A DNA stretch of 64,000 nt from positions 2,136 to 66,135 of the forward strand of contig QEXY01000163.1 in NCBI GenBank assembly GCA_003130875.1, given 5' to 3'. This DNA is from Ardenticatenia bacterium. GTDB lineage: Bacteria > Chloroflexota > Anaerolineae > 4572-78 > NAK82. The notes beneath the pieces were generated by a model that saw only the letters and a program-made list of their open reading frames with translations, had not been told where the DNA came from and made no database searches. The position numbers were made by a program, and so were the translations under genes. This document shows positions 33,779 to 50,210 of this stretch, in pieces; position 1 is the stretch's first letter, and each line of letters starts with the position of its first letter.

Positions 33779-34357
33779 TCACATCCTGTCTGAGGCATCG
33801 GAACGGTGATTTGCTGCGAAGCGGTGCAATGCACTCAGCTGTTCCGGGGTGAGCTTGACAAACGGGCGCACACGGCGGATCGCCTCGATCGCCTGGTCCA
33901 CGCTCATACCAGTGCTGACCAGATATGCGGCGGCCAGTGTGGGCGCCCGTCCCACTCCGCTCGCACAATGGACGTAGACGACACCCCCTTGAGCGACGAC
34001 ACGGTGGATGAATTCCACACCAGCGTGGAAGTGCTCCGGCGCCGGCGCGTGGTCGTCTGCAGTGGGCAGCCACAAGTACATATCCTCAGGCACACCATAA
34101 GTGCGGTCATCATGCTCCGCGCGCAGATTGACTGTGGCAGTGATTCCGTGCGCTGTCAGCCAATGCCAGCCGCCGGCGCGCATCTGCCCACCCACCCACA
34201 AATGGGGTGTGATGCGGCAGTAGCGTTCCACTTCGCGCCCCACCGTCCACATAAACAGGCGCGTCCACAGCCATGTCCCCGTGATGCGCCAGCCGTAGTG
34301 ACGCACGCGATACACGGCAATCGAAGCCGCCTTGGCCAGCAGACGCAATGGATGCAT
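33779..34357 (-). CDS. Dual-specificity (CX5R) phosphatase
   Basis: VYVHCASGVGRAPT P-loop, ITPHLWVGGQ and PTADD acid loop. Confidence 0.9.
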   Translation of the reverse strand: MHPLRLLAKAASIAVYRVRHYGWRITGTWLWTRLFMWTVGREVERYCRITPHLWVGGQMRAGGWHWLTAHGITATVNLRAEHDDRTYGVPEDMYLWLPTADDHAPAPEHFHAGVEFIHRVVAQGGVVYVHCASGVGRAPTLAAAYLVSTGMSVDQAIEAIRRVRPFVKLTPEQLSALHRFAANHRSDASDRM

Positions 34358-36556
34358 CTAGCTCCGTTCGTCCAGGGTGAAGTAATGCAAAGATGAGGGT
34401 GGCAATGCTTCGATGATCTGGCCATCCTGGAGCAACGCTGCCGCCACGCCGATGCGGTCGCCCAGGGAGATGCCTAACGCCTGGCAGGGCACGCGCACTT
34501 CCCAGACACGCTCCGTCGCCGCGCTTGCGACCGCCGCCTCCACTTCCAGCCAGCTGCCCCGTGGGCTGGCCGTCTTGAGCACCGCTCCGAAGCCGTGATG
34601 CAGATCGACGCGCCAGCTGGCGCCGAACGGTGTCTCCGGAGGTGCCCCTTCAGCAGGCAACCCAAAAGATGCCTCCGCACCCGAGGGCGGTTCGGGACGC
34701 AGGAACACGCTCACCTCATATGACCCTAAAGCCACCCAGGATTCCAACCGGAAGTACACAGACATGGGATTATAGCCGAAGTACAGTCGGCGCAACAACC
34801 CTCGCTCGCCACGCTGCATCGTGCCTGTCGAGGATGTGGCATCCAGAAAGCCGGCGCCTGACCACTCCAGACTCGCCTCCGCTCCGGCTTCGAGGTGCGG
34901 CGCGATGTAAGCGCTGATGGCACGATAGTCGCGCGGCTCGGCAGTGGAGCGGATCGGCTGCAACAGCCACGGCGGCACGGGTAACCCAATAATGCGATAA
35001 ACGCCTGCCAAATGTTCTCGGAAAGTCCGATCGAACAACGGCTCCTCGGTGCTCACGTTGTGGCTGTAATACCACCAGAACCAATCGCTACCCTCAGCGA
35101 TGTAAATCTGCCGCCAGGCCGCCTCCAGGACATCCAGGCCAGCGCCAGGGACGGCATTTTGCCACGCCATCAAGTCGCGCCGCACCTGTGCCAGCACCTC
35201 CCAAGCACGGTTCTGGTCCGCCTCACCGATCCAGGTCTCCAAGTTGCCGCGAATCCATGAGCCGGTGGCCAGCTGTGGCAGCGTCTCACGCGGCGCAAAC
35301 GCCTCCAGGTATTCGGAGACAGTTACTGTGCGCAGGTCTTCCGCCTCGCTCAATCCCCGATACAGGTGGTGTAAGAAGGGGTCGCCCTGTTCTGGATAGC
35401 TCTCCCAACAATTCTCGCCATCCAGGATGATTGCCACCAGATAGGGATGTTCTGGATCGTTCAGGCGCTCGCGGATGGTGCGCAGCCGTCCCAACAAGTC
35501 CTCCGCCGCGTCCTTGCCCGCCATGCTCTGATAGACGAACCCGATGCGGTCCGAAAGAATATGATCACGGAAGATGACCGTCAGCCCATCGACGCGGTAC
35601 GGCTGGTACAGTAGATGAGGGCGGATGACATGGCCGTAGGCATCGCGTTCGATTGAGGTGTTCAACGAACGCGCCAGGATGGCCTCGTCGGTGGCGAACC
35701 AGCGGATGCCATAGCGTTGGAGCAAAGGGAGCAGCTCGGGACACACTGCTCCTTCTGGCGGCCATAGGCCGCGCGGAGGCTGCTCGAAGGCAGCCCGGTG
35801 TGCTTCGACCGCCAGCCGCAGCTGTTCCAGGGCGTCTTCGACATGGCGAAAAGAGCAGTTCGGCAACACCAGCTGCGGACTGGCACGCCGTGCCGTCTCC
35901 AGGTCGATCAGGAGCGGCAAGATAGGATGGAAATAGGGCGAGGTGGTCAGTTCGATCTGCCCGCGCGCCTGCAGCTCGGCATATAGCGGCAGAACGCGCG
36001 CTATCCGTTCCCGTTGCTTCTCCAGGATCAGATCGATGTCGGCACGGGTGAAATTCTCACCCTTCTCGACCAGTGCTCGCAGTGCAGGATCGTTGCGCAG
36101 TGCCGTCGGGTCGATCCATACCAGGTTAAACCATGCCACCAGGTCGTAGTAATAGGCATCGCTGAAGAGATGGTGTCCGCCGCGCGCCTGATGACGCAGA
36201 TCGAGCAGCTGCTGGTAGCGCCGGTGCGGCCGGATGATGCGCTCCCAATTGGCGCTAAAGAAGAAGGCGAGCAAATAGGCCTTCTCCTCCTCACTCCAGT
36301 GGTCCTGTCGGCTCAGTGTCAGCGCATGATCTACCGCCTCGCCGCGCGCGTACTCCTGGAGCTGCTCCACCAGGCACGGCACGAAGTTGAAGGTCGCCTT
36401 GACGGATGGGTATTGACCGAGCACCTCGGCCATGTGCACGTACTCCTTCGCTCCGTGCAGACGTGCCCACGGCAGGATGTACTCGCCGCTGGCCGTATCC
36501 TTGTAGTACGGCTGATGCATGTGCCAGACGAATGCCACGTAGAGAGGATGTTGCAC
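34358..36556 (-). CDS. Glycoside hydrolase family 57 (amylopullulanase-like alpha-glucan enzyme)
   Basis: WHMHQPYY, HPILPLL, GLWPPEGAV, ILDGENCWE and AEGSDWFWWY (GH57 conserved regions). RBS AGGAGG. Confidence 0.93.
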   Translation of the reverse strand: MQHPLYVAFVWHMHQPYYKDTASGEYILPWARLHGAKEYVHMAEVLGQYPSVKATFNFVPCLVEQLQEYARGEAVDHALTLSRQDHWSEEEKAYLLAFFFSANWERIIRPHRRYQQLLDLRHQARGGHHLFSDAYYYDLVAWFNLVWIDPTALRNDPALRALVEKGENFTRADIDLILEKQRERIARVLPLYAELQARGQIELTTSPYFHPILPLLIDLETARRASPQLVLPNCSFRHVEDALEQLRLAVEAHRAAFEQPPRGLWPPEGAVCPELLPLLQRYGIRWFATDEAILARSLNTSIERDAYGHVIRPHLLYQPYRVDGLTVIFRDHILSDRIGFVYQSMAGKDAAEDLLGRLRTIRERLNDPEHPYLVAIILDGENCWESYPEQGDPFLHHLYRGLSEAEDLRTVTVSEYLEAFAPRETLPQLATGSWIRGNLETWIGEADQNRAWEVLAQVRRDLMAWQNAVPGAGLDVLEAAWRQIYIAEGSDWFWWYYSHNVSTEEPLFDRTFREHLAGVYRIIGLPVPPWLLQPIRSTAEPRDYRAISAYIAPHLEAGAEASLEWSGAGFLDATSSTGTMQRGERGLLRRLYFGYNPMSVYFRLESWVALGSYEVSVFLRPEPPSGAEASFGLPAEGAPPETPFGASWRVDLHHGFGAVLKTASPRGSWLEVEAAVASAATERVWEVRVPCQALGISLGDRIGVAAALLQDGQIIEALPPSSLHYFTLDERS

Positions 36557-36587
36557 GCGTGACCTGACCTCCTGGAAGAGAACGAGA

Positions 36588-36605
36588 GCGCAGAAACCTC
36601 TGCGC
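36588..36605 (-). terminator. Probable terminator or hairpin after cooC (end of the acs operon)
   Basis: GCGCAGA-aacc-TCTGCGC followed on the minus strand by pyrimidine-rich TCTCGTTCTCTT. Confidence 0.4.
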
Positions 36606-36636
36606 CCTCAATATATTCGCTGCGTTTTGACCGGTC

Positions 36637-37422
36637 TCAGGATGTTGCCATAGCTTGATCGAATGTGGCGGCAATCTGACGCGCTTCAGCTACCATCTCC
36701 GGCACCGCTTCGTAGATGGCGCGACCACGCTGATCCGCTTCCACCGCCTTGGGGTTGAAGGACAGGAAACCGATGACCGGCAGGTCGGGCAAACTTTCGC
36801 GGATGAAGGCACGGTCGGCCTCATCGCGCACCTTGTTGCCCACCACGAAGCAGCGGGTCACTCCGATGTCCTTGGCCAGACGATGGATCGTCTGCGCTGT
36901 GCTCAAGCTGCGCCGCCCTGGCTCCACCACGATGAGGAAGGCATCCACCGCGCTCGCTGTCGCCCGGCCGAGGTTCTCGATCCCGGCGTCCATATCCAGG
37001 ATCATCACCTCATTGCGGTAGAGGATGACGTAGGTGACCAGCGCCTTGAGCAGCGCGCTCTCCGGACAGATGCACCCACTACCACCCTTCGAGATGGTGC
37101 CCAGCTGCAGCAGGCGGATGCCCTGATATGTCACGCTGAAGCGATCCGGGATGTCGTCCACGCGCGGGTTAAGGGTGAAAAACCCGCCTGTCTCGCCGGG
37201 TCGAGCGCCAGTACGCTCGTAGATCAGGTCGTCCATCTCGGCGATGGGGTGCAGCTGCGCCAGTAGCTCCTCCGGAACGCCCAGCGCGTAGCCCAGGCTG
37301 GCCGCTGGATCGGCGTCGATCGCGATCACCGCATAGCCTGCCTGGGCATAGATATGGGCCAACAGGGCGGCCAGCGTCGTCTTGCCCACGCCCCCTTTGC
37401 CGGTCACCGCCAATTTGGGCAT
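36637..37422 (-). CDS. cooC: CODH/ACS nickel-insertion ATPase (CooC/AcsF)
   Basis: GKGGVGKTT, IDADP, GSGCICPE (CxC) and DMDAGIENLGR. Confidence 0.95.
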   Translation of the reverse strand: MPKLAVTGKGGVGKTTLAALLAHIYAQAGYAVIAIDADPAASLGYALGVPEELLAQLHPIAEMDDLIYERTGARPGETGGFFTLNPRVDDIPDRFSVTYQGIRLLQLGTISKGGSGCICPESALLKALVTYVILYRNEVMILDMDAGIENLGRATASAVDAFLIVVEPGRRSLSTAQTIHRLAKDIGVTRCFVVGNKVRDEADRAFIRESLPDLPVIGFLSFNPKAVEADQRGRAIYEAVPEMVAEARQIAATFDQAMATS

Positions 37423-37455
37423 CGCATACTCTCCCCAGCGCGCACCCAGTGCCGA

Positions 37456-38958
37456 CTAGGAAGCCGGCACCGCTTCTTTCTCTTGCTCGCGCGCCACTTC
37501 TGGACGCGGCAGCTCGCGCACCACCGGGCGTGGCAAGCCCGCCTCTTCGACTAGCCTTGGCACGATCGACTCCCAATGCACTGCCATAATGTGCAGGCCG
37601 TGGATGCCCGGTGTGTTTTTCAGCCGCTCGATCATCTCCAGGGCGATCGTCACCCCCATCTCGGCCTGGGCTTCCTTGTCGCCTGCTGAGTCCATGCGCT
37701 TCAGGTCGGACTCGGTGAGCACCACACCGGGCACGTCTTTCATGAAATGGGCAGCCTTGGCACTGCGCAGCGGGACGATGCCGGCCAGAATATACACCTT
37801 GTTCAGCAGATTGCGCTTGTCCAGCGCTTCCAGCCACTCGGTGAAGCGGTTATAGTCGAAGACGGGCTGGGTCTGGATGAACTGTGCGCCGGCGTTGATC
37901 TTCTTCTCAGCCCGGATGGCCTCGTACTTGGGTGGAGCACCGAAAGGCGACGCGGCAGCGCCCAGGAAGAACTTGGGACGTATCTTCATTTCGCGCCCAT
38001 CAATGTATTTGCCCTCGTCGCGCATACGGCGCAACATCCAAAGGATTTGCACTCCGTCCATGTCGAACTGGTCCGGCATAGCCATCGGCGCCGGCCCGAA
38101 GCGATGATGATCACCGGTGAGGCAGAGGATGTTGCGGATGCCCAGGCCCGAAGCGCCCACTGCGTCCGATTGGATCACCACACGGGTGCGATCGCGCGCC
38201 TGCAGCTGCATCACCGGCTCCAGGCCGGCGTCCAGGCAGAGCTTGGACGAGGCCAGGCTGTTCATCCGGCAGGTGGCCGAGGCATTATCGGTGAAGTTGG
38301 CTGCTGTCACATAGGGCTTCAACATGTTCACCTTCTTGATAAGGCCCTCCGGCGAGGCATCCAACGGTGGTGCAATCTCCGCCGTGACGGTGAACACGCC
38401 GCTGCGCAGGTTCGCCTCCAGAAGAGAGATCGGCTCGGTGTAGGCCGGTGGATGGTACTGCGAGTCCCCCTGCCACCAGTCAGGCTGGCGCAGCGCGTAG
38501 AAGAACTCCTCCCACTCGCGGTTGAACTTGGCGCGATTGAACACGAAGTCCCACGGATACGGCCCGGCCTTGCGCTTGAACCACAGCTTGATCATATCGA
38601 GCCAGGTCTCATGGCCCACCCGGTTGCCATCCACCGGCGCGTTGATCTCGAGCAGCTTGTCGAGTCGGCCCATCCGCTCGGAACGTTCATAGATGACATA
38701 CCAGGTGCATGGGCGCGAAGGATCCACTTCGCAGTGGTCAGGCGTCGCACCGCCGCACAGGCCGTTGCGCAGACCTTTGGGGCATGTCATCGGACAGACG
38801 AAGGCGGTCTCCTGCAGGATGCAGTTGCCGCACATGCGGCAACCGAACAGGGCGCCCTTAATCGCCTGCTCGAAGGCGGTGAATACCTGAACCGGCAAGG
38901 AATCGCGCTGCACCGGCATAAAAGGTGCTTGATAACGTCGTGGTGAGAACAGAGGCAT
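37456..38958 (-). CDS. metF: Methylene-THF reductase as a MetV (Cys-rich)-MetF fusion
   Basis: N-terminal CRMCGNC...CPMTCPKGLRNGLCGG...CEV...C (MetV/MTHFR_C) followed by MetF motifs (AEIAPP, NFTDN, NILCLTGD, KKINAGAQFIQTQ). RBS GGAG before ATG 38958. Confidence 0.92.
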   Translation of the reverse strand: MPLFSPRRYQAPFMPVQRDSLPVQVFTAFEQAIKGALFGCRMCGNCILQETAFVCPMTCPKGLRNGLCGGATPDHCEVDPSRPCTWYVIYERSERMGRLDKLLEINAPVDGNRVGHETWLDMIKLWFKRKAGPYPWDFVFNRAKFNREWEEFFYALRQPDWWQGDSQYHPPAYTEPISLLEANLRSGVFTVTAEIAPPLDASPEGLIKKVNMLKPYVTAANFTDNASATCRMNSLASSKLCLDAGLEPVMQLQARDRTRVVIQSDAVGASGLGIRNILCLTGDHHRFGPAPMAMPDQFDMDGVQILWMLRRMRDEGKYIDGREMKIRPKFFLGAAASPFGAPPKYEAIRAEKKINAGAQFIQTQPVFDYNRFTEWLEALDKRNLLNKVYILAGIVPLRSAKAAHFMKDVPGVVLTESDLKRMDSAGDKEAQAEMGVTIALEMIERLKNTPGIHGLHIMAVHWESIVPRLVEEAGLPRPVVRELPRPEVAREQEKEAVPAS

Positions 38959-39004
38959 CTTGTCTACTCCTACTCCAATGATATAAATCCAAAACCCACA
39001 TCCA

Positions 39005-39910
39005 TCATAGTCCAGGCAACAAGTAGGCGTAGGCACTCAGCGCAGCTTTGACGCCGCCCCCTGCCGCCACCAGAATCTGCTCCATATAGGTGTTCGTGAC
39101 GTCGCCTGCGGCACAGATGCCGGGCACATTGGTGCGCCCGCGCTCGTCAATGCGGATATGCCCGCTCGGATCCACGTCCACCAGACCCACCACCGGCTGC
39201 GAATTGGGGATCACCGCGATTTCGACGAAGAACACCCCAGCCGCGATTTCCATCTGCGACCCGTCCGGCGCGCTGACCACAATACGACGTGCATACTCGT
39301 CGCCCTGCATCTCCAGCACCTGGTAATTCTCCAGGATGGTGACGTTCTGGGCCTTCTTCAACTTGATCCCCAGGGGGCTATCCAGTACGTGAGGTTCCAC
39401 CCCCACCAGATAGACCTGGCGCGCCGTCAGGGCGATTTCCGCCGCCGCACGCACGGCGAGCTGGCCGTTGCCGATGATTGCCACCACGCGGTCGCTCATA
39501 TGCGGTGCATAGCGCAAGGCAGAGTAGCTCAGGCCGCGCATCAGGTATTTCTCTTCGCCGGGCACGTGCATGCGCTGATGTTTTACCCCGGTGGCCATGA
39601 TGACCGCCTTGCCCAAGAGCACCGCCTTCTCTTGGGTATGCACCGCAAAGCCGTCGCGATGGCGGCTTACCCGCACAGCATAGTCCTTATAGTGCGTGAA
39701 GTCCAGGCGCTCCAGCTCCGTCTTGAGCCCTTCGATTATCTCCTGTCCTTCCAGAACGATGGGGGTCTCCTCGGGCGGCAATTGCATTCGATAGTTGGTC
39801 TTGCCCCCTAGCGTCTTAGAGACGAGCAACACCTTCAGGCGCCGTCGCGCTGCGTAGATTGTCGCGGTGATGCCGGCCAGCCCACCGCCCACCACAATCA
39901 GGTCATACAT
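39005..39910 (-). CDS. TrxB/AhpF-fold FAD-dependent NAD(P)H oxidoreductase lacking the redox CxxC
   Basis: GGGLAG, ATG, GNGQLA and TNVPGICAAGDVT. The CxxC position reads GLSYSALRYAP. Confidence 0.88.
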   Translation of the reverse strand: MYDLIVVGGGLAGITATIYAARRRLKVLLVSKTLGGKTNYRMQLPPEETPIVLEGQEIIEGLKTELERLDFTHYKDYAVRVSRHRDGFAVHTQEKAVLLGKAVIMATGVKHQRMHVPGEEKYLMRGLSYSALRYAPHMSDRVVAIIGNGQLAVRAAAEIALTARQVYLVGVEPHVLDSPLGIKLKKAQNVTILENYQVLEMQGDEYARRIVVSAPDGSQMEIAAGVFFVEIAVIPNSQPVVGLVDVDPSGHIRIDERGRTNVPGICAAGDVTNTYMEQILVAAGGGVKAALSAYAYLLPGL

Positions 39911-39947
39911 GGACGTTCTTATCCTCCTCGTGCCGGGCGCGTTTCGC

Positions 39948-40868
39948 CTAGACGCGCAGATAGGAGTCGGTATAGATGACCTGATTATACAGGATCTGCG
40001 CCGTCTTGAACAATGCGACCTGATCCGGATCGCTCATATCCACATCCTCGGCGGTCAGGCGTTCACCGGCCGCGGTCTTGTCATACAGCTTGAGCACCAA
40101 ACGGCCCAACGCAGTGCTGTCGTCGCGTTGGGTGATGATACGGATGAACTCGTTCTGCTGCTGGTCCAAAGGGTTGGCGATCACATAGTCCAGCCCCACC
40201 GCCATCAGCATCACCAGGTAAGTGCGGTTGATCAGCGGCCGCATCTCGTTCGGCACCGCGTTCGACACATTGCTGAGCCCGGCATTGGTCATAGGGGGCG
40301 GGTCACCCGCTAGCTTGAGCAGGCGGATTGCCTCGATGCACTCCGGGCAGTACTCCTGACAGCCGCTGACGGTCAGCACCAGCGGGTCGATCAGCAGGTC
40401 TTCCATCGGGATGCCCAGCTCGACAGCGCGCGGGATGAGATATTCCAGGGCGATGTTGACGCGCTCCTCGGCACTCACCGGAATGCCCGACTTTCCCATG
40501 GTGAGGGCGATGAGCTTGGCGTTGTACTTCTTGGCCAGCGGTGGCACCGTGGCGAGGCGCTCTTCTTCCGCCGAAGTGGAGTTGATGATGCATTGATGCT
40601 TGGCCACCTTCAGCCCTTCCTCGATAGCGGCCAGATTGGTGGTGTCCAAAACCAGAGGCACATCCACCACTTCCTGAATACCCTTCACCAGCCACGGCAT
40701 GATCTCGTGGCCAGCCTTCTTCTGCGGGCCGATGTTCAGGTCGAGATAGTGTGCCCCCGCTTCCACCTGTTTGAGCGCCAGCTCCTGGAAGAAGCGGATG
40801 TTCTTCTCGGCCAGAGCCTCTTTGACCCGTGGCGAGATAATATGAATGTTCTCACCTATGATATACAT
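39948..40868 (-). CDS. acsE: Methyl-THF:corrinoid Fe-S protein methyltransferase
   Basis: IIGENIH, LDLNIG, LDTTN, IINS, LLIDP and GLSNVS. Position in the acs operon supports the call. Confidence 0.93.
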   Translation of the reverse strand: MYIIGENIHIISPRVKEALAEKNIRFFQELALKQVEAGAHYLDLNIGPQKKAGHEIMPWLVKGIQEVVDVPLVLDTTNLAAIEEGLKVAKHQCIINSTSAEEERLATVPPLAKKYNAKLIALTMGKSGIPVSAEERVNIALEYLIPRAVELGIPMEDLLIDPLVLTVSGCQEYCPECIEAIRLLKLAGDPPPMTNAGLSNVSNAVPNEMRPLINRTYLVMLMAVGLDYVIANPLDQQQNEFIRIITQRDDSTALGRLVLKLYDKTAAGERLTAEDVDMSDPDQVALFKTAQILYNQVIYTDSYLRV

Positions 40869-42854
40869 CTAACTTCCTCCTTGAACAGAACGGGATATGG
40901 GATTGTTTCGGCGCGCCGCCAAAACTTCCGCCACAGATGGGAAATGCGCCAGATCGGTATGCGGCAGGAACAACGCCGAGGTGAACGCTTCGTAAAATGA
41001 GTTATCCGCTGAGAGCTCCAGGTAAGTCATCTTCTGGGCGATGGTGGTCAAATGATGGCGGAACTCGCGATGGAGCAACGCCAACAGCGCACCCTTCAGG
41101 GCGGTGTTGCCCAAAAAGTGGAATTTCTCCCACGGCAGGTCAGGCAACAGCCCGATCTGGATGGCCTTTTCCACGTTGATATATTGACCGAATGACCCAC
41201 CCACAAGCACCCGTTCCACTGTGGACAGGTCAGTGCCTACGCTGCGGGCCATCACTGTGAAACCGGCGTAAATGGCAGCCTTGGCGCGGATGAGGTTGTC
41301 GATATCCACCTTGGTGATAGCGATGTCGCGCCCATGCGCTGTCTCGCTGCCCCACGCCACGACATATTCCGGCCCGTGCTCGCCGCGGCGGATGCGCGGG
41401 GAGCCCATGTCAAAGTTGAGATTGCCCGCCTTGTCGATCACGCCCGTGATGAACATCTCGGCGAGCAGGGAAATCAGCCCCGAGCCGCAGATACCCCGCG
41501 GCGGAGTCGGCTGGCCTTGCGCTTCCAGCTTGGGATCGGGGATCACACGATAGGTCGGCTCGTAGGTCTGGCTGTTGATCCAGACCTCCTCGATGGCGCC
41601 TACTGTCGCACGCATGCCATCGCGCACCCCGGCGCCTTCGAAGGCGGGACCCGCCGAACAGGCACAGCTGACAAGCCAGTCGCAGTCGCCCAGCACCATC
41701 TCACCGTTGGTGCCGATGTCCAGGAAGAGCGCCACCGTCTTGCTCTCGCACATCTGCGAGCCGAGGATGCCCGCCGGGATATCGGCACCGACATAGCTGG
41801 CCACGCCGGGCAGACAATCGACATGCGCCTGCGGATGAATGGCGATGCCGAGCTCGGCGGCCTGCACCGGCGGCGGCTGGTTGATCGTGGTGATAAACGG
41901 CTCGAGGCGGATCGAATTAGCAGGCAATCCCAGCAACAGGTGGATCATGGTGCTGTTACCTGCCACGGTCATCTTGTAGACCTCGCTGGGGCGGATGCCG
42001 GCGCGCCCGCAAGCACGTTCGAGAATCTGGTTGATGGTATCCACCACCAGTGCCTGCATCTCCTGGAGATTGCCGTTGCGACTTGCGTAGATAATGCGCG
42101 AGATGACGTCCTCGCCGCGCTTGATCTGGGCGTTGTATTCCGCCGCCTGTGCGGCGATCTCACCGCTGAGCAGATCCACCAGGTAGAGGCTCACCGTAGT
42201 CGTGCCCACGTCCACCGCCGCGCCCCAGAGATGGTTCGTAGCGTGTCCAGGCACCACGTCCACCAGGCGCGGCGGCCCCTGCGGCCGATCCCAGGTGTCC
42301 AGTTCCACCACCGCTGTGACCATCCAGTTCGCCTCGCGCAGCGTAGTGCCCAGCTTGCGCAGCGTCGGCAGGTCGATGGTCAGCTCGGAGATGCCATGCT
42401 GGAGTGCCATAGCGCGCTTCAAGCGCGACCAATCATCCGTCTGGTCGTCCATCGAGGGCGGATCGAGCGTCAGCGCCATCAACTGCATGGGCTGATGCTG
42501 CTTGGGGTCATAGACAAACGGCAGGGTGACCTTCGTCGCGATGCGGTCCGTGACCAGACGGCGCTCGATGCGCTCCTGTGGGGGAATGGTGACCGTGACA
42601 TCTCCTTCGAGCACCGTCTGGCAAGCCAGGACATAGCCGGCGGCGCGGTCCTCCTGGCTGAGGCGCAGCTCCGAACGGCTGCGCACCGCCTGCCGATTGT
42701 CCACGAGCACGGCGCAGCGTCCGCAACGTCCCTGGCCGCCACATGGGATGTTCAAGTCCAGCCCTGCCTGGCGCACTGCCTCGACGATCAGCGTGCCAGT
42801 AGGCACCTCGACCGTTTTTCCAGAAGGCTCGAAACGTACCCGGTGGGTCGCGAT
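40869..42854 (-). CDS. acsV: Reductive activator of CFeSP (RACo/AcsV, 2Fe-2S + ASKHA DUF4445); 5' end extended to an ATC codon
   Basis: CGGQGRCGRC, DVGTT, DIGTNGE, GPAFEG and GICGSG. The frame upstream of GTG 42806 encodes xATHRVRFEPSGKTVE, which belongs to the ferredoxin-like domain. GGAGG RBS precedes ATC at 42854. Confidence 0.9.
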   Translation of the reverse strand: MATHRVRFEPSGKTVEVPTGTLIVEAVRQAGLDLNIPCGGQGRCGRCAVLVDNRQAVRSRSELRLSQEDRAAGYVLACQTVLEGDVTVTIPPQERIERRLVTDRIATKVTLPFVYDPKQHQPMQLMALTLDPPSMDDQTDDWSRLKRAMALQHGISELTIDLPTLRKLGTTLREANWMVTAVVELDTWDRPQGPPRLVDVVPGHATNHLWGAAVDVGTTTVSLYLVDLLSGEIAAQAAEYNAQIKRGEDVISRIIYASRNGNLQEMQALVVDTINQILERACGRAGIRPSEVYKMTVAGNSTMIHLLLGLPANSIRLEPFITTINQPPPVQAAELGIAIHPQAHVDCLPGVASYVGADIPAGILGSQMCESKTVALFLDIGTNGEMVLGDCDWLVSCACSAGPAFEGAGVRDGMRATVGAIEEVWINSQTYEPTYRVIPDPKLEAQGQPTPPRGICGSGLISLLAEMFITGVIDKAGNLNFDMGSPRIRRGEHGPEYVVAWGSETAHGRDIAITKVDIDNLIRAKAAIYAGFTVMARSVGTDLSTVERVLVGGSFGQYINVEKAIQIGLLPDLPWEKFHFLGNTALKGALLALLHREFRHHLTTIAQKMTYLELSADNSFYEAFTSALFLPHTDLAHFPSVAEVLAARRNNPISRSVQGGS

Positions 42855-42877
42855 GGTTCCCTTACCTCCTCAGGCGC

Positions 42878-44224
42878 TCATCCCCAGCGCGTCTTCAGGT
42901 AGTTGGGCAAGTCCACTGCCTCACGCGGCCCGACGTTGATCTCCCAGCCGGGCAGCTCCTCCTCGATCTCACCCAGCAACACGGCAACATGGCCAGGGAT
43001 GATAAGACGCTTATGGTTGATCTTCTGCTCGATGCCGGTGCTCTTCACCGTCTTGGCGATGCGCTCCGCGTCGAATTTGCCAGCCGCCCAGGCAGTCAAC
43101 ACGCTCATCCCCTCCGCGTCCGCCACCAACAGCCAGCCCGGCAGGCCGCTGCTCTCCACCTCGTTCGCCACCGAGAAGTATGTGATCGAGAAATTGGTGG
43201 TGATCATCAGCGGGTCGGATGGACCGGGATGGTTGATCTCGTAGACACCGGGCAAGACTTGGATGGGCTTCTGCGGATCGGTGAAGAGATTGGCGCGCAA
43301 CACGATGAGTGGATAGGCCATGGCTGGGTCGAACTGATCGAGCACGATGAAACCGGCGTACTTGGCGATGTGTTGTGCGGCGAGGGTGATGTCATCACCG
43401 GCAAAGGCGATCAGCGGATAGCCCACCTTGCGCTCATTTTTCCTGAGCGCCAGCCGCCGCAGCTGGGTAAACGCTGCCAGGCTGCTGGCATGGTCGCGCG
43501 TGCCGGGATCGAGCACCAGATCTTCCACGCCGGCGTTCTTCACCTGCTCGGCCAGATCGGCCAGGGCGTTGAGGTCGCCGTTCGGTCCCAGCACCGCTAG
43601 AGGCACCTTATACTGCGCCGCCAGCTGGGCCATCGCCTGCCAGTTCTCCGCACTGGCAGCCCACAAGAGCGGCGTCGTGCCCTGCGCCGCTTTCAAACCC
43701 GCCTCAGCCGTCGCGGGGTCGGTGGCCATAAGGATGAGAGGGAAAGGACACGCCGCTTTGACCGCAGCCACGGTCGCTCCGAAGTCACCGCCAGCAGCCT
43801 CCACCGCCACGCCGTCCAGGCTCAACGACATCCCCACGTAGTCCACAGTGTAATCGGCCACTGCCTTGGCCACCTGTGCGGCGTCGGGCTGGGTGTCCTT
43901 GACGCGCACGAACAGCCCCGGCGGGTGATAGAAGGTCTTCTCATGGCGATGGAGCACCAGCTCGTTGCCGACTTCCAGCTTCTTGGCGCTGCCAGCGACA
44001 GTGATCAGCCGGATCGGCGGCGCGGCGGACTCCTCCAGCTGGCGCTTGGATTCTTCTTCCACATAAGGACACAATGACAGATCTGCCTGCTTGGCAGCCA
44101 ATTTCATCGCAAAGGCGAGACAGGTGGGATACCCACACTCCTTGCAATTGGCGTGGGCCTTGACTTCCGGATTCGTGCTGCTGGCCGGTAACAGCTTATA
44201 GATTTGCAGGCCGGTGAGAGCCAT
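42878..44224 (-). CDS. acsC: Corrinoid Fe-S protein large (gamma) subunit
   Basis: MALTGLQIYKLLP...NCKECGYPTCLAFAMKLA...CP, TTNFSITY and GMSVLTAWAAGKF. Confidence 0.97.
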   Translation of the reverse strand: MALTGLQIYKLLPASSTNPEVKAHANCKECGYPTCLAFAMKLAAKQADLSLCPYVEEESKRQLEESAAPPIRLITVAGSAKKLEVGNELVLHRHEKTFYHPPGLFVRVKDTQPDAAQVAKAVADYTVDYVGMSLSLDGVAVEAAGGDFGATVAAVKAACPFPLILMATDPATAEAGLKAAQGTTPLLWAASAENWQAMAQLAAQYKVPLAVLGPNGDLNALADLAEQVKNAGVEDLVLDPGTRDHASSLAAFTQLRRLALRKNERKVGYPLIAFAGDDITLAAQHIAKYAGFIVLDQFDPAMAYPLIVLRANLFTDPQKPIQVLPGVYEINHPGPSDPLMITTNFSITYFSVANEVESSGLPGWLLVADAEGMSVLTAWAAGKFDAERIAKTVKSTGIEQKINHKRLIIPGHVAVLLGEIEEELPGWEINVGPREAVDLPNYLKTRWG

Positions 44225-44281
44225 AATGGATTACCTCCGTCTCTGGACTGTCTGTCACATCATACCCTGGGCGAACACTGC

Positions 44282-45232
44282 TCAGCCTATCAAGGCATTG
44301 ATCATCGCACGCACCCGCCGCAGCGACTCGGGATGGCGCAGCACAACGATATCCGCTCCCGAATGAATCAGGGTGCTGGCGGTGAGCACCTCCCAGTTGA
44401 TGGCACGCTTCACATAATCACCCCAGGCCGCCGGAACACCTTCGGCAGCGCGTGCCTCCTTGGTGCGCCACGCTTCCTCTCCAGGCGTGACCAGCATGGG
44501 CAGCTGCGTCATGCTATCGCCCTGCAGCGCGGCAATGCGCAGCCGTTCCATAACACTGTAGCCATACTCGATCCCGTAGCCGAGCGCGCCGGTGGTCGGA
44601 TCCATGATGATGCGCTCCACCGGCAGGCCCATATCATGGATGAGGATGTTGAGCTGTTTGGACAGGTTGACATCCATCGGCGCACGTGCGTCCACCAGGT
44701 GTCCGTGAGCCAGGGCAGCCGCCACGATGGTGCGGTAGTTCTTCTCCTCGCACACGCCGAGCACCAGGCGTTCCCCCTTTCCTTCCTCGGCGACGGCGAC
44801 GAGCACCTCGTTGTCCCAATCCGCCTGTCCGGGGCCGAAGACGACGAGGGGTAAACCGGTGGCCGACAGCACGCGGCGCAACACTTGGCGGGCGTAGGGA
44901 GCGCTCAGCTGTTCCGAAGCGTTGAAGCGCAGCGCCACCAGGTCGGCGCCGGCTGCCTCGGCCGCTTTGGCCCATTCCGCTACATCTTGGGTGGCGCCGT
45001 CCCACGCCTGGAGCAAGAGAGCCGGCCAGTCGCTCGGCGGCTGGTCGCGTACCTCGATGGCAATGGCAGGTGGGTGAGGGATCTCCCCTTCGAACTTGAG
45101 AAATGGCAATGTCGTCTCACCCCCCACGGTCACGGTGCGCGCTCGCGTGCCCCCCTCCGCTGCCGTAGCGCCCAAGGTGACTTCGCGGACCTTCCCGCTC
45201 CATTTTTCTTTGGGGACCTCGATTCCGGGCAT
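44282..45232 (-). CDS. acsD: Corrinoid Fe-S protein small (delta) subunit
   Basis: ATG 45232 with RBS GAGGAGG; VTVGGETTLPF, MDPTTGALGYGIEY and GADIVVLRHP. Confidence 0.95.
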   Translation of the reverse strand: MPGIEVPKEKWSGKVREVTLGATAAEGGTRARTVTVGGETTLPFLKFEGEIPHPPAIAIEVRDQPPSDWPALLLQAWDGATQDVAEWAKAAEAAGADLVALRFNASEQLSAPYARQVLRRVLSATGLPLVVFGPGQADWDNEVLVAVAEEGKGERLVLGVCEEKNYRTIVAAALAHGHLVDARAPMDVNLSKQLNILIHDMGLPVERIIMDPTTGALGYGIEYGYSVMERLRIAALQGDSMTQLPMLVTPGEEAWRTKEARAAEGVPAAWGDYVKRAINWEVLTASTLIHSGADIVVLRHPESLRRVRAMINALIG

Positions 45233-45378
45233 GAGCGAAAACCTCCTCTTATCTGTTTGAATCCCTTGATGGATAATGGCGATGAACAACTAGCAGGCTC
45301 GACGGAGTCAAAGCGAGCAGATTGTCCCACGCCGGGCGGATGCTGCGCTCTAGGGGTGATCTTCCTGGCTGGCTATGC

Positions 45379-45777
45379 TCAGCTAGCTTCAGCACACATT
45401 GCGGCGACGACATCGCTCAGCGACAAAACCCCAACCGGTCGGTTGGGTGTGCGACCTCCTTGCACGATGAGCAATCGGCGTAGCCCCTTGTCCAGCATAA
45501 TCTGAATGGCTGCCTTCAGCAATAGGTCACCGGGCACGGTGACCACATTGGGTGTCATAATCTCTTCCGCCTTGCGGTGTTGCCAATCACCCTGGACGTA
45601 CGCGCGCGCCAAATCCACCTGCGAGATAACACCCTCGGCACGTCCGCTATCGTCCAGGACGAATATAGCATTAATGGAATATTCGCGCAATCTGCGCGCC
45701 ACGTCGATCAAGGGCTCATCCGCCCAACAGGTGATCACCCCGCGATGCATGACATCCCGCACCAGCTTTTCGCTCAT
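45379..45777 (-). CDS. Stand-alone tandem CBS-domain protein
   Basis: VRDVMHRGVIT...GVISQVDL and AEEIMTPNVVT...GVLSLSDV. RBS AAGGAG. Confidence 0.9.
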   Translation of the reverse strand: MSEKLVRDVMHRGVITCWADEPLIDVARRLREYSINAIFVLDDSGRAEGVISQVDLARAYVQGDWQHRKAEEIMTPNVVTVPGDLLLKAAIQIMLDKGLRRLLIVQGGRTPNRPVGVLSLSDVVAAMCAEAS

Positions 45778-45862
45778 TTTGCTCGCTCCTTTCCGAGCTA
45801 TCCACCCTTTCCTGTCCGTCTATGTGACAGGATGACGGTTACCACCTTCGCAAGAATCCTTG

Positions 45863-45901
45863 CAGTGGGCAGCGGCAAGGTATTCATGCCGCTGCCCACT
45901 G
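45863..45901 (-). other. Strong intergenic stem-loop directly after acsB, without a U-tract
   Basis: Perfect 15-bp inverted repeat CAGTGGGCAGCGGCA-9 nt-TGCCGCTGCCCACTG. Confidence 0.75.
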
Positions 45902-45911
45902 GCATATCCCA

Positions 45912-48191
45912 TCAGAACATTGGATCCATCGTCAGCGCCGGATGGCCTACCTTCTCCATCCAGGCCAACAAGCCCTCCACGTCGGTGCAGATGGTCTCGT
46001 CAGCGATCTTGTTGATCAAATCCGGGTCACCTTCTCGCTCTGCCACTGCCTTAAGTTCCTCGGCCATGGTCTGCTTGAGGAAGCTGCTCATCCACACCAC
46101 ACGTTTGAACCCGCCATCCGCCGAGAGGAACTTGGGGCTGGTGAGGAAGTATTTACCGACGCCCATCACACCGGGGGTCTGCAGCCCGCCGCCGGCGATG
46201 CCAGCCAGGGTGCTGAAGGTCATACCCGCCGGCGTCATGCTCGGATCCTCGCGCGACACCACCATCACCCCGTTTGCCTCCGGGATGACCATCACGATGC
46301 ACTCGAAGCAGCCGCATGCGGTCATGGGGTTCTCGGTGATGGAATACATAGCTACCTCGTGCACCGTGCCATGAGATGCCTGCTCGACGAAGGCGTTGGG
46401 CCCCTCCCAATAGCCCTTGACCGGGTCGATCATGCGTCCCTTCTTGATGGGCTGGTTAGGACCGGTGGGGTTGATCTCGTAGCTCGCCTTGCAGTCGAGC
46501 CAGTTGTAGGCGCCGCACAGACCGAGCCGCTGCGGCGTCACCACGCACACGTGGTTGGGCGCGAAGCTCTGGCAGAGGGTGCAGGAGTAGAACTCGTCCA
46601 CCGCCTCGTCGGTCAGGTCAGCCAGTCGCTGGTTGCGATAGGCGTATGCCGCGCGTGCCTTCTCCAACCACTCGGCGTGCAGCGCAGGGTCGGTGATGAT
46701 CTTCACCTGCACTTTGTCGACGATGGCGCCGAAGTCGGCGTGGAAACGGGCGTGCAGGATGTCGCCGAAGTGGCGCAGGGTGAAGCCCTTCTCAGCAGCC
46801 ACCTTGCTGATGCGGATCCAGGTGATGTCGCGCTGGCCGATATGCTGCACACCTGATGCACCGTTGATAAAGTAGTGGATCTGACGCTCCAGCACCGGCT
46901 CGAAATCTTGCTGCATCTTGCGGCCGGCCACCTCGACCAGGATGCCCAGATCCATCGCCCCGCCCACCGGTACATCGTCAAATGAAGGGCCGATGACCTC
47001 GATCTTGCCGTCCTCGACCTGGTCCAGGTCGACCATGCGCAGGTACTCGAAGGCACGGCTGTGCTTGCCACCGAACTCGACGCGCATATCGGCCTTGCGC
47101 ACCACTTCGCCCTCGAACGCTGAGCCGTAGGGCACCGGGATGGGCACCTCGGTCACACGCACCTTGACGCCGCGCACCTCGATGCACTTCTGTACCAACC
47201 GCTCGGCCTTCTCCATGTCATCCTTGCCGGGGATCTCGTTCCACGGCATCGAGATGACATGCTCATAGGGGGTGATGCCGGTAGGCAAAATCTCAGGGAT
47301 GACCGTGTCGGCGATGACGGGGAAGCCGAAGTTGATCGCTCCGGCGGCTGCGGCATACTTCAGGTCGTCCACCTCGCCCAGCGCCAATACGAAAGCAAAG
47401 ACGCGATCTTTGTTATAGAGCAGAATATCGCGTGCCATACCGCCCTTGAGGCCGCCGAAGGTGAGTGCCGAACGGGTGGCAAATCCCAACGCATAGATGG
47501 CGCTGATGGTGTCCAGGCCGAAGGGAACTGTGTAGGTGTCGTAGCCCAGCTCGACACCTTCTTCCATCAACTGGTGCAGGATGCTGCGTCCATTGACATT
47601 GCCGCTCAGGAAGACGAGGATGTTGCGCCGCTGCAGCTCGCGCACAATCTTGACCGCCACCTCGTTGCTCTTGGCGCAGCCGATCACCGCGGCGAAGCCG
47701 GGCATGCGGCCGTCCACCAGCTGGATGCCCCAGCTGCGCAGCTGGATGTCGTCGATGGGGCCGTTGAGATGGCCATCTGCCTCGCCGCCCAGCTGTTCTG
47801 GTGTGTACTGCGTGCCGCCCGCCAGGCGGAAGCCGGGAATGCGTTGCGGCTCCAACTTATAGACGAAGCGGATTGCCTCGATCGCTTCTGCGGCCAAGAG
47901 AGTCGCCATGCCGCTGTCGAGCGTCTCACCCAGATAGGGCGTCCAGTGTTTGCTGGCCGGCAGCGGATGCAACAACGAGCGGGCGTGTTCCAAAACCGGC
48001 TTGAGATGGCCCAGCTTGGTCACCTCGATCCCGGTCATGCCATAAATGACCGGCAGGTAGTAGGCAGTATTGGGAAAGGCCACTGGGGTGTCGGGGCCTT
48101 TCTCGGCCAGAGCTTTTTGCAGCATCAACTCCGCTTCGGTTACTAGGGCATGGGCACCGCGCATTGCGCGCGTGGCGATGTATCGGGACAT
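45912..48191 (-). CDS. acsB: Acetyl-CoA synthase (ACS, bacterial type)
   Basis: FPNTAYYLP. A-cluster ligands CTLCQSFAPNHVC...GLCGA and TACGCFEC are intact. Confidence 0.97.
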   Translation of the reverse strand: MSRYIATRAMRGAHALVTEAELMLQKALAEKGPDTPVAFPNTAYYLPVIYGMTGIEVTKLGHLKPVLEHARSLLHPLPASKHWTPYLGETLDSGMATLLAAEAIEAIRFVYKLEPQRIPGFRLAGGTQYTPEQLGGEADGHLNGPIDDIQLRSWGIQLVDGRMPGFAAVIGCAKSNEVAVKIVRELQRRNILVFLSGNVNGRSILHQLMEEGVELGYDTYTVPFGLDTISAIYALGFATRSALTFGGLKGGMARDILLYNKDRVFAFVLALGEVDDLKYAAAAGAINFGFPVIADTVIPEILPTGITPYEHVISMPWNEIPGKDDMEKAERLVQKCIEVRGVKVRVTEVPIPVPYGSAFEGEVVRKADMRVEFGGKHSRAFEYLRMVDLDQVEDGKIEVIGPSFDDVPVGGAMDLGILVEVAGRKMQQDFEPVLERQIHYFINGASGVQHIGQRDITWIRISKVAAEKGFTLRHFGDILHARFHADFGAIVDKVQVKIITDPALHAEWLEKARAAYAYRNQRLADLTDEAVDEFYSCTLCQSFAPNHVCVVTPQRLGLCGAYNWLDCKASYEINPTGPNQPIKKGRMIDPVKGYWEGPNAFVEQASHGTVHEVAMYSITENPMTACGCFECIVMVIPEANGVMVVSREDPSMTPAGMTFSTLAGIAGGGLQTPGVMGVGKYFLTSPKFLSADGGFKRVVWMSSFLKQTMAEELKAVAEREGDPDLINKIADETICTDVEGLLAWMEKVGHPALTMDPMF

Positions 48192-48194
48192 AGC

Positions 48195-50210
48195 TCACAC
48201 CTCCACACCATATAGAGCAGCACGCCGCTGCGCCAATGGCAACGCCTCCAGCTCGAGCACGCGGCGGTCGCCGCTGCGCCCGAAGCGGCTTGGATCGTAC
48301 GCCGGCAGCTTGAGCGCGGCGCGCTTCTTGTCAATGTGTTCCAACGTGCGGCGGATCATCTCGTCCGGATCGTTGATGAACTCCAGCTTGCCGCCGTAGA
48401 GGCGCTCCCAGCCTTCGCTGAGGTAGCGCAGCACCAGATCGCTGTCCGAGACACGGTCGGGCATGCCGCTCACTGGCGAGGCGCCACCGAAGATGACATA
48501 GGCGCCCGACGCCACACAATAGGTGGCAATGGCCAACGCTTTTTCACTCATCCATTCCGGCGCCAGGCCGACCGCCGGGATCTGGTCGATGTCGTCGCCC
48601 AATCCCCCTTCGGCGACCATCTGCGTGAGCACGGTCAGGATGCGCGAGTTGTCCACGCAGGAGCCGACATGCAACACCGGTGGAATGCCCACCGCCTCGC
48701 ACACCTCGCGCAACCCAGGGCCGACATGCTCCAGGCCCGCTTCACCCACCATCAGCCCAGCTTTGGCGCTGGCGATGGCACCGCAACCGGTCTCCAGGAT
48801 GAGGACATCCTGCTTGAGCAGCTCCTTGGTCACATAGGTGTGCAGATAATCGTGCGGGCTGCGCGGGTTGTTGCAGCCGACGATCGCCGCCGCGCCGCGG
48901 ATGCGCCCGGCCATAATCGCGTCGTTCAGCGGCCGGAAGGAAGCGCGGTAAGTGCCACCCAGCATATAGTTGATATATTCATGCGAGAAGCCTGGGATCA
49001 GATCCTCGCGCACATCCGGGATGCGCGGCTCCGCACGGTTCTTGTAATTGTCGATGGCGCGCTTGAGAATTTGCTTGGCGATCGTCAGCGCCTTGCTCTC
49101 TTCGAACTCGATATGCACGGCGCCCTTGATGCGCACCTTGGGAGATGTGGTGATGATCTCGGTATGGAACTTCTGCGCCAGCGAGACCAGCGCCTGCATG
49201 ATGCATTGCACGTCCACCACCATCGCCTCAACCGCACCGGTGAGGATGGCCAGCTCCTGTTGCAGGAAGTTGCCTGCGGCGGGGATGCCCTGGCGCATCA
49301 GGATCTCATTGGCAGTGCAGCAGATACCGGCCAGGTTGACGCCCTTGGCGCCGGCTGCCTGGGCATAAGCGATGATCTCCGGATCCATCGAGGCGGCCAC
49401 GATCATCTGGCTGAGCGTCGGCTCGTGACCGTGGACCACCACGTTGACCATGTCCCTGCGCAGCACACCCAGGTTGGCCTGTCCCACGATAGGTGCCGGG
49501 GTGCCGAACAGGATATCGGAGATGTCCGTGCCGATCATGCTGCCGCCCCAGCCATCGGCCAGCGCCGTGCGTACCGCCTGCTGGAGCAGGTGCTCCATAT
49601 CTTGATCGTCGCCGATGTGGGTGCGGTGCAGACACTCCACCACCTCGCGGTCAATGCCACGCGGCACCACCCCCAGCTCGCGCCACAGCTTCTGGCGCTT
49701 GGCAGGTGCGCGGCTGATCAGGACAACCTCGCCCTCCTGCTGGCCGAACTGTGCCAGGTAGAGATCGGCCAAGTCGTTGGCGATCTCATTGGGCGAACGT
49801 CCCTCGATCGGGATGCCGTAATGGGCTGCCAGCGTGCGCAATTTGGCCACGTCGCGGATATAGTAGCCCTCGGCATGGCCGTTGGCGGTTGCCTTGAGCG
49901 TCATCGCCATCCCGCGGCCGTGATCGGAGTGTGCCGCAGCGCCGGCAGCGATCATGCGCACCAGATTGCGCGCCTGGATCACGTCGATGGTGGCTCCACA
50001 CACGCCGGTGGCGCCGTCCTTGGTGAGGCGACAGGGGCCCATGCCACACATCTTGCAGCACATGCCGGCGCCGCCGATGTTACACGGCGCCATCGCCTCC
50101 GCACGGCTGAAGGCGGTGCTGACGCCCAACTCTTCGGCGCGCTGCAACATCTGTTGCGCCGCCGGATCCACACTGCGCTTGCTCAGGTCACTTTCCTTTT
50201 CCCTAGCCAT
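48195..50210 (-). CDS. acsA: Anaerobic Ni-CO dehydrogenase catalytic subunit
   Basis: CNIGGAGMCCKMCGMGPC, AAAHSDH, HGHEP, GICCT, GCNN, ETGCG, GSCVDN and SEKA. Confidence 0.97.
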   Translation of the reverse strand: MAREKESDLSKRSVDPAAQQMLQRAEELGVSTAFSRAEAMAPCNIGGAGMCCKMCGMGPCRLTKDGATGVCGATIDVIQARNLVRMIAAGAAAHSDHGRGMAMTLKATANGHAEGYYIRDVAKLRTLAAHYGIPIEGRSPNEIANDLADLYLAQFGQQEGEVVLISRAPAKRQKLWRELGVVPRGIDREVVECLHRTHIGDDQDMEHLLQQAVRTALADGWGGSMIGTDISDILFGTPAPIVGQANLGVLRRDMVNVVVHGHEPTLSQMIVAASMDPEIIAYAQAAGAKGVNLAGICCTANEILMRQGIPAAGNFLQQELAILTGAVEAMVVDVQCIMQALVSLAQKFHTEIITTSPKVRIKGAVHIEFEESKALTIAKQILKRAIDNYKNRAEPRIPDVREDLIPGFSHEYINYMLGGTYRASFRPLNDAIMAGRIRGAAAIVGCNNPRSPHDYLHTYVTKELLKQDVLILETGCGAIASAKAGLMVGEAGLEHVGPGLREVCEAVGIPPVLHVGSCVDNSRILTVLTQMVAEGGLGDDIDQIPAVGLAPEWMSEKALAIATYCVASGAYVIFGGASPVSGMPDRVSDSDLVLRYLSEGWERLYGGKLEFINDPDEMIRRTLEHIDKKRAALKLPAYDPSRFGRSGDRRVLELEALPLAQRRAALYGVEV

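Follow-up and report, generated by a model that had tools for sequence, protein, structure and literature searches.

A thioredoxin reductase-fold flavoprotein family without the redox disulfide, associated with malic enzyme in Anaerolineae and found within an acs operon

Methylene-tetrahydrofolate (methylene-THF) reductases (MTHFRs) of types I-IV have been described, and the MetVF enzymes, which are devoid of an NADH site, recruit extra flavoproteins, with RnfC2 as the flavoprotein module in type III and HdrA-MvhD in type IV (PMC8760232). As the physiological electron donor of the MetVF-type methylene-THF reductases is an open problem (PMC8760232), a flavoprotein co-transcribed with acsE and metVF constitutes a concrete, clonable candidate. 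Such a protein is encoded on the stretch of DNA analysed here, 64,000 nucleotides of contig QEXY01000163.1 (positions 2,136 to 66,135; hereafter the window) from an Anaerolineae metagenome-assembled genome (MAG) of 3.49 Mb and 96% completeness. Between acsE and a fused metV-metF gene, on the minus strand and co-directional with both, positions 39005..39910 code for a CxxC-less FAD protein of 301 amino acids (P0001) with the fold of thioredoxin reductase (TrxR) and AhpF, here called TRL. On the basis of its sequence, TRL belongs to a distinct monophyletic offshoot of TrxR/AhpF that lost both active-site cysteines, and gene order suggests that in Anaerolineae the genes of this family are paired with that of an NAD(P)-type malic enzyme in a module of two, malic enzyme first and TRL second.

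The low-Mr TrxRs (TrxB; Sulfolobus TrxR-B3, 3f8d; E. coli, 1tde) resemble TRL in fold (TM 0.86-0.89), length and FAD motifs, while the reductase core of AhpF (1fl2, 4o5q) is the best structural match (TM 0.89, 32-33% identity). The AlphaFold2 model of TRL (pLDDT 94, pTM 0.89) has the GxGxxG and GD motifs within a two-domain FAD/NAD(P)H fold, adopts the FO (flavin-oxidising) conformation and terminates in a helix formed by residues 279-300; its best Foldseek matches are the AhpF core (1fl2/4o5q, TM 0.89) and Sulfolobus TrxR-B3 (TM 0.88). With respect to profile models, TRL matches Pfam Pyr_redox_2 (E 4e-33), and obtains 188.8 bits against NCBIfam TRX_reduct (TIGR01292; cutoff 343.45) and 179 bits against the AhpF model (TIGR03140; cutoff 503), of which only positions 213-513 of 515 are covered. 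As these scores are far below the curated cutoffs, TRL is kin to both models and a member of neither. TRL stays under the cut-off of every curated NCBIfam model, and its hits in Pfam are to general domains of FAD/NAD(P)-oxidoreductases.

The motif positions were set by alignment to solved TrxR and AhpF structures and to the canonical TrxR of the same genome. An earlier note on this DNA had reported intact FAD motifs, which is confirmed by the dinucleotide fingerprint GGGLAG (residues 8-13, 39872..39889, minus strand as for all TRL motifs) and the C-terminal FAD (GDV) motif CAAGDVT (residues 266-272, 39095..39115). Equally correct was its reading of the former redox-disulfide site as YSALRY (residues 129-134, 39509..39526), where S130-A-L-R133 aligns to CxxC and neither of the two positions holds a cysteine, and of the HRR 2'-phosphate pocket of TrxR as GVEPH (residues 170-174, 39389..39403), with G170-V-E172 aligned to HRR. 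The fingerprint of the NAD(P)H domain reads GNGQLA (GxGxxA; residues 147-152, 39455..39472). Thus, in contrast to TrxB, the TRL family possesses SxxS (SxxR in TRL itself) at the position of CxxC and A/G-P-x plus a two-residue insertion at the position of HRRxxxR, and forms a clade of its own, with TRL below the TIGR01292 cutoff. HRR is absent also from AhpF, which is an NADH enzyme; unlike AhpF, however, TRL has neither the N-terminal double thioredoxin-fold domain nor CxxC, and no AhpC neighbour. An assignment as ordinary TrxR or AhpF was consequently rejected on the missing CxxC and HRR, the missing AhpF N-terminal domain and the sub-cutoff scores.

That a functional protein is encoded is indicated by several observations. 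The TRL gene starts with ATG preceded by GAGGAGG, and its dN/dS of 0.04-0.06 in comparison with five congeners (acsE, 0.013-0.037; metVF, 0.02-0.04) shows that it is under purifying selection; TRL is a genuine functional gene and no chance open reading frame (ORF). At the same time TRL diverges faster than its neighbours, with 44-62% versus 73-85% identity. Four microbial-mat metatranscriptomes contain the TRL region at at least 99% identity, and single metatranscriptome contigs, for which DNA carry-over is possible, bridge cooC-metVF-TRL (36573-39614) and TRL-acsE (39351-40839). TRL is co-transcribed with acsE and metVF-cooC, with the reservation that the libraries may contain carried-over DNA.

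A homologue search seeded with TRL alone retrieved only near-identical MAGs and canonical TrxRs, whereas a HMMER scan of 1.8 billion representatives yielded 370 matches at E <= 1e-30. Among the best 150 of these 370 matches, all sequences with serine at the first cysteine position and the pattern Y-S-[AST]-x-[ST]-[YH] fall together in a single clade (SH-aLRT support 100), which comprises 60 representative clusters, or about 60 at 50% identity, and is set apart by a long branch from the CxxC-bearing TrxR-like proteins. The members, of about 300 aa, are mostly from Chloroflexota; the named ones belong to Anaerolineae (including Promineifilaceae and Caldilineales), Chloroflexia and Herpetosiphonaceae, besides one Spirochaetota MAG. 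The family consensus at the former CxxC is Y-S-A-x-S-Y-A-P-L-F; S130 is invariant and Y129 invariant or nearly so, while position 133 is serine or threonine throughout the family, with arginine only in the genus of the window. The FAD motifs vary little or not at all across the clade: G8 and G10 never change, and G13 shows a conservation of at least 90%. The former HRR loop carries the two-residue insertion with the consensus A-P-x. Source databases label the members 'thioredoxin reductase', 'AhpF' or 'NAD(P)/FAD-dependent oxidoreductase', of which the first two are wrong for this family. No description of the family, of a pair of malic enzyme and TrxR-like protein, or of a TrxR-like partner of MetVF was found in the searched full-text literature; the family is thus undescribed in that literature and unnamed in the databases searched. 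In one member (P0155, 439 aa), a CxxC-less domain of the TRL family is joined to the receiver domain of a response regulator, which hints at a flavoprotein under phosphorylation control, or at a signalling output, in some lineages. Natural fusions with MetV, MetF or malic enzyme were looked for and none was found, P0155 being the only fusion seen.

TrxR-like ferredoxin:NAD(P)+ reductases (FNRs) also lack CxxC and possess a C-terminal subdomain, of which a His, Val, Tyr or Phe stacks on the FAD's re-face in the partner monomer (PMC10294844). B. subtilis YumC (3lzw), B. cereus FNR2 (6gas) and C. tepidum FNR have the CxxC-less TrxR fold in common with TRL, and the earlier note had pointed to the YumC and Chlorobium types as precedent for its reading of TRL as a diaphorase or FNR. 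Membership of TRL in this type is not supported. TRL residues 1-298 align to residues 7-315 of the 332 of 3lzw and to 9-316 of the 331 of 6gas, with only three TRL residues beyond, so that, unlike in the YumC-type enzymes, the FAD-stacking subdomain is missing. The E values against FNRs of 6e-14 to 1e-12 (around 1e-13) are about 28 orders of magnitude weaker than the 1.7e-41 against TrxR, and no TrxR-like FNR is found within the Foldseek top 50 for the TRL model; on these three grounds membership was rejected. The weak similarity to FNRs and the grouping with TrxR/AhpF indicate that the TRL family lost its disulfide independently of the FNRs. By likeness, a chemistry as in the TrxR-like FNRs, with hydride in and single electrons out, is nevertheless plausible, and an FNR-like working of TRL is possible. 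Taken as a whole, the proposition that TRL is an ordinary TrxR, a peroxiredoxin reductase like AhpF or a ferredoxin-NADP+ reductase of the YumC type is barely credible, as the best sequence and fold matches are indeed TrxR and AhpF and relatives are so annotated, but the CxxC cysteines, the AhpF N-terminal domain and the FNR stacking subdomain are all absent, scores stay far sub-cutoff and the same genome has a canonical TrxR gene at another place.

The gene neighbourhood was assessed in a class-wide sample of 301 genomes, 75 of which (about a quarter of the sampled Anaerolineae) carry a TRL-type gene, with 49 loci, including the locus of a related NCBI Anaerolineae MAG (L001), annotated by tblastn and Pfam. 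In 41 of the 49 loci, which represent about 25 families, a malic enzyme of about 455 aa is encoded immediately upstream of TRL on the same strand, with a median gap of 33 nt (range -8 to 311 nt), and a malic enzyme gene precedes TRL also in a Spirochaetota MAG and a Caldilineaceae MAG. The protein was identified by the Pfam domains malic and Malic_M and by its similarity (E 7e-143) to the malic enzyme of Entamoeba histolytica (3nv9), the closest solved relative; with a median pairwise identity of 71% it is much more conserved than TRL. Downstream of TRL, folD is found in 16 of the 49 loci, while MetVF or MetV plus MetF is encoded within 6 kb in 15, an acs gene nearby in 20 and any Wood-Ljungdahl gene within 6 kb in 30 loci. 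The usual site of the module is in or beside the block acsE - malic enzyme - TRL - folD - metV/metF, but 16 loci harbour the malic enzyme-TRL pair without a nearby Wood-Ljungdahl gene, and there phosphoenolpyruvate carboxykinase, a GlcD/GlcF-like oxidase and class-I fumarase are often encoded. No conserved ferredoxin or flavodoxin gene was found near TRL in the loci examined. A linkage with NfnAB was considered and dropped, since GltD-like genes do occur near a few TRL loci, but the adjacent 308-aa gene encodes a radical-SAM protein and not NfnA.

The block can be split. In at least 11 genomes of five families (G075, G214, G049, G245, G291, G283, G238, G305, G235, G254 and G079), the fused MetVF is encoded 7-26 kb from AcsB on one contig and TRL on another contig or 140 kb away, together with malic enzyme in all of these genomes save G079. 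This arrangement suggests that upon separation TRL follows malic enzyme, while MetVF follows acs. A malic enzyme of about 455 aa is, as a separate observation, a regular constituent of Anaerolineae acs clusters directly after acsE, with or without TRL (L001, L029-L031, L033, L035-L074, L155 and L171), and no mention of a reason for its travelling with the CODH/ACS (carbon monoxide dehydrogenase/acetyl-CoA synthase) genes was found in the searched literature.

On the level of entire genomes, AcsB is present in 62 of the 75 TRL genomes versus 96 of the 226 TRL-less ones (odds ratio 6.5, p 8e-10), and this type of malic enzyme in 59 of 75 versus 67 of 226 (odds ratio 8.8, p 9e-14), both without phylogenetic correction. 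The expectation of the earlier note that TRL is not randomly distributed relative to acs operons agrees with this enrichment of TRL in Wood-Ljungdahl organisms.

The genus of the window departs from the common pattern. In the TRL tree, the sequences of taxonomic family f1 constitute one clade (support 100/98), which splits into a subclade with short branches that keeps the malic enzyme (L001, L029-L031) and a malic enzyme-less subclade (support 100/100) with about four-fold longer branches, to which the genus of the window, G007 and G011 belong (the window, L034, L027 and L028 were compared). No match to the cluster-linked type of malic enzyme is present in the genome of the window at E 1e-100, the only malic enzyme being a 41-42% identical paralogue on another contig. 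Tree and gene order together indicate that malic enzyme was lost once in this lineage, so that TRL now has acsE on one side and the fused metVF on the other. TRL subsequently diverged about four times faster than in the sister clade with malic enzyme, though still under purifying selection. The genus carries the changes S133R, L137H and F138M at the former catalytic site, and these, together with the longer branches, point to a shift in constraint on TRL after loss of the partner gene. That TRL has been kept without malic enzyme implies that it is useful here independently of malic enzyme, and a connection with MetVF, or with some other component of the Wood-Ljungdahl pathway, would fit its retention.

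Which function does TRL then perform? The reading that we favour, though tentatively, is that of an accessory FAD oxidoreductase between the NAD(P)H pool of malic enzyme and FolD and an iron-sulfur acceptor. In TRL and its close subfamily (118 sequences with at least 52% identity), G147, G149 and A152 of GxGxxA are at least 90% conserved, and as this fingerprint is kept, hydride from NAD(P)H probably passes to the FAD. The arginines that bind the 2'-phosphate in TrxR are absent, so TRL would not be NADPH-specific in the manner of TrxR. The suggestion of the earlier note that the protein leans towards NAD(H) depends on the single residue E172, which is not conserved even within family f1, and was therefore given up. 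As there is no disulfide, the flavin must hand over its electrons to an external acceptor, presumably in one-electron transfers to an iron-sulfur protein, with ferredoxin, the MetV domain and the [2Fe-2S] domain of AcsV as the candidate acceptors from context; the reverse direction is also conceivable. TRL would in this way couple the malic enzyme/FolD pyridine-nucleotide pool to the low-potential carriers of the Wood-Ljungdahl pathway, as an optional redox-balancing accessory and not as an obligatory subunit of MetVF.

Several findings weigh against this proposal. The statement of the earlier note that the NAD(P)H motif is intact applies to TRL and its close subfamily, but in the wider family the second glycine of GxGxxA is variable (E/D/T/S/Y; e.g. 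GDEELA, GDDDLA, GDTTQA and GTYRRA). With another residue in place of this glycine in roughly half of those orthologues that have the gene context of TRL, it is doubtful that the family as a whole possesses a conserved canonical NAD(P)H site, and the degenerate fingerprint in same-context orthologues is the chief weakness of every NAD(P)H-based reading. The co-occurrence statistics on the 301 genomes, furthermore, ignore phylogeny. TRL is absent from 96 ACS-positive genomes and from 67 genomes with this type of malic enzyme, so that neither malic enzyme nor ACS needs TRL. Finally, malic enzyme is absent and TRL kept in the genus of the window, which suggests that the role of TRL there is independent of malic enzyme.

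FFTR and DDOR retain CxxC and reduce thioredoxin. These NADPH-independent enzymes (FFTR, 6gnd; DDOR/DTR, 5j60) possess a degenerate pyridine-nucleotide fingerprint, as is also found across much of the TRL family, but differ in that CxxC is absent from the TRL family and TRL itself retains GNGQLA. In analogy, the family could work independently of NAD(P)H, either as a ferredoxin- or flavodoxin-linked flavin carrier or as a redox-sensing regulatory pseudo-reductase at the malic enzyme locus. Throughout the family, the two hallmarks of TrxR catalysis are either lost or degenerate, with GDEELA, GDDDLA and GTYRRA in the same gene context, the protein evolves faster than its neighbours, the receiver domain is fused to TRL in P0155 and the gene is optional, all of which would fit such a role. 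On the other hand, GxGxxA is kept in TRL and its 118 closest relatives, the FAD site as well as S130 and Y129 are strictly conserved, the low dN/dS indicates constraint, and a conserved gene for a partner ferredoxin or flavodoxin is not found nearby. Cumulatively, these observations make an NAD(P)H-independent function doubtful.

SthA is a flavoprotein of the disulfide-reductase family that works without a redox disulfide. By analogy, TRL might be a soluble pyridine-nucleotide transhydrogenase (NADPH + NAD+ <-> NADP+ + NADH) that balances the pools of malic enzyme and FolD, which would agree with its location between two NAD(P)-dependent dehydrogenases in many loci and would require no iron-sulfur partner. 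With the NAD(P)H motif degenerate across the family and no homology to SthA beyond the superfamily, such an activity appears improbable.

In the window, TRL is placed immediately 5' of the fused metVF on one transcript. The gene of the fused MetV-MetF methylene-THF reductase (37456..38958, minus strand; 500 aa, Pfam DUF5981 and MTHFR) is separated from TRL by 46 nt if ATG 38958 is taken as its start, and the acsE methyltransferase gene (39948-40868, minus strand) is located 37 nt upstream of TRL; Pfam and curated models identify both neighbours as the earlier note had named them. The longest metVF ORF has GTG 39036 as its start codon and an overlap of 32 nt with the TRL stop, but a GGAG site upstream of ATG 38958 and the alignment of homologues only from residue 27 onwards indicate that the latter is probably the start. 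The adjacency is characteristic of the lineage: in eight of the nine loci of the genus, family and order of the window, TRL is directly 5' of a fused metVF within the acs cluster, and the ninth locus (L032) is a contig of 6.1 kb without metVF.

This arrangement raises the alternative of a fifth MTHFR type, TRL-MetVF, with TRL as its dedicated flavoprotein subunit for NAD(P)H oxidation, in which the FAD would pass electrons to the clusters of MetV in analogy to RnfC2 in Acetobacterium woodii and HdrA in Moorella. The adjacency persists in a lineage without malic enzyme, and the recruitment of extra flavoproteins by MetVF enzymes without an NADH site provides the precedent (PMC8760232). Moreover, GxGxxA is kept in nine of nine TRLs directly before MetVF as compared to 16 of 41 others (p 0.0016), a correlation which, however, collapses on the tree to essentially one clade. 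RnfC2 and HdrA-MvhD share with TRL the position next to metVF, but TRL is unrelated to RnfC2 and HdrA in sequence, holds no iron-sulfur clusters, unlike both of them, and is not consistently linked to metVF. MetVF or MetF is found within 6 kb in only 15 of 49 loci, in at least 11 genomes the fused MetVF stands beside AcsB with TRL elsewhere, and 96 ACS-positive genomes do without TRL. A cautionary precedent is lpdA of Clostridium ljungdahlii, which adjoins metVF and whose role was considered and then rejected (PMC8760232). A dedicated TRL-MetVF enzyme is thus unlikely, and still more so its specific version, in which TRL would be the cluster-free TrxR-fold FAD subunit of a fifth, Chloroflexota type of MTHFR with the upstream malic enzyme supplying NAD(P)H. 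The proposal of the earlier note that TRL is an electron partner of MetVF is therefore retained as to adjacency and co-transcription in the window, but the usual partner is malic enzyme (41/49) and not MetVF; as to the co-occurrence with metVF that it had suggested to check, adjacency is seen in the order of the window, proximity within 6 kb class-wide in 15 of 49 loci, and separation in the split genomes.

Downstream of malic enzyme, TRL-less genomes encode a fumarase, unrelated genes or, in two loci of family f9, HdrA-MvhD-MetV. In these two, L155 (G045:C11) and L171 (G092:C98), a protein of 1015-1018 aa and then MetV occupy the slot after acsE - malic enzyme that is taken by TRL in other families. 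In L155 the order is acsB-D-C-E - malic enzyme - HdrA (1018 aa) - MvhD - MetV, where by Pfam the long product is HdrA-like and the 142-aa one after it is MvhD/FlpD. That the slot between malic enzyme and MetV is filled by HdrA and MvhD instead of TRL is a small point, from two loci, for TRL-MetVF; a non-orthologous replacement of TRL by HdrA-MvhD is suggestive, with two loci of one family too few to weigh.

A second methylene-THF reductase locus is encoded in the same genome outside the window (G000, contig C195:12643-26917). This Moorella-like (type IV-like) locus comprises a fused MetVF paralogue (45% identity), a CBS/ACT protein, a 1050-aa HdrA-like protein, MvhD, a 1539-aa HdrA/GltD-like fusion, separate MetV and MetF, and an HdrB/C-like CCG protein; the HdrA fusions of this set are unusually large. 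With an HdrA-MvhD-MetV-MetF cluster at hand, TRL does not stand in for Hdr-MvhD in the organism as a whole, and the earlier idea of a functional replacement of HdrABC-MvhD is not supported at genome level.

The TRL gene is located towards the 3' end of a string of co-directional minus-strand genes that runs from about 51 kb to 36.6 kb of the window. The upstream part of the same operon, acsA-acsB-(CBS ORF)-acsD-acsC-acsV (40869..50210), consists of acsA/CODH (48195-50210), acsB (45912-48191), acsD (44282-45289), acsC (42878-44224) and acsV/RACo (40869-42806), all on the minus strand. A CooC/AcsF-type maturation ATPase gene (36637..37422, minus strand) closes the transcription unit, followed by the sole good terminator-like hairpin (36610-36583). 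Directly 5' of acsA, a BldC-like regulator is encoded (50214-50816, minus strand); this 200-aa protein combines an N-terminal helix-turn-helix of the BldC/excisionase type with a C-terminal part of weak, sub-threshold likeness to a UxxU metal-binding (seleno)protein model, and could serve as a regulator specific to the operon. Between acsB and acsD, a gap of 620 nt contains an ORF of 132 aa (45379-45777, minus strand) that matches in position and length the ORF before acsD in the congener L034 (cluster includes L029), while the NCBI MAG L001 has CBS-domain genes of 134 and 164 aa in this gap. Downstream of the acs operon, cooC is followed by genes for a GH57 glycoside hydrolase (732 aa) and a dual-specificity phosphatase (192 aa; together at 33779-36556, minus strand), a string that is syntenic in related genera (L028, L029, L034) and connects the acs cluster, at its end, with a glycogen/alpha-glucan enzyme.

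With respect to significance, the TrxR superfamily as such is well known, and what is new is a flavoprotein of this superfamily with an independent loss of the disulfide and a distinctive gene partnership. A sizeable TrxR-fold family is thereby defined, in which the disulfide disappeared separately from its loss in the known TrxR-like FNRs and which possesses a very consistent partner in malic enzyme. Should TRL turn out to be the donor of MetVF, interest in the family would rise to high; otherwise it is moderate.

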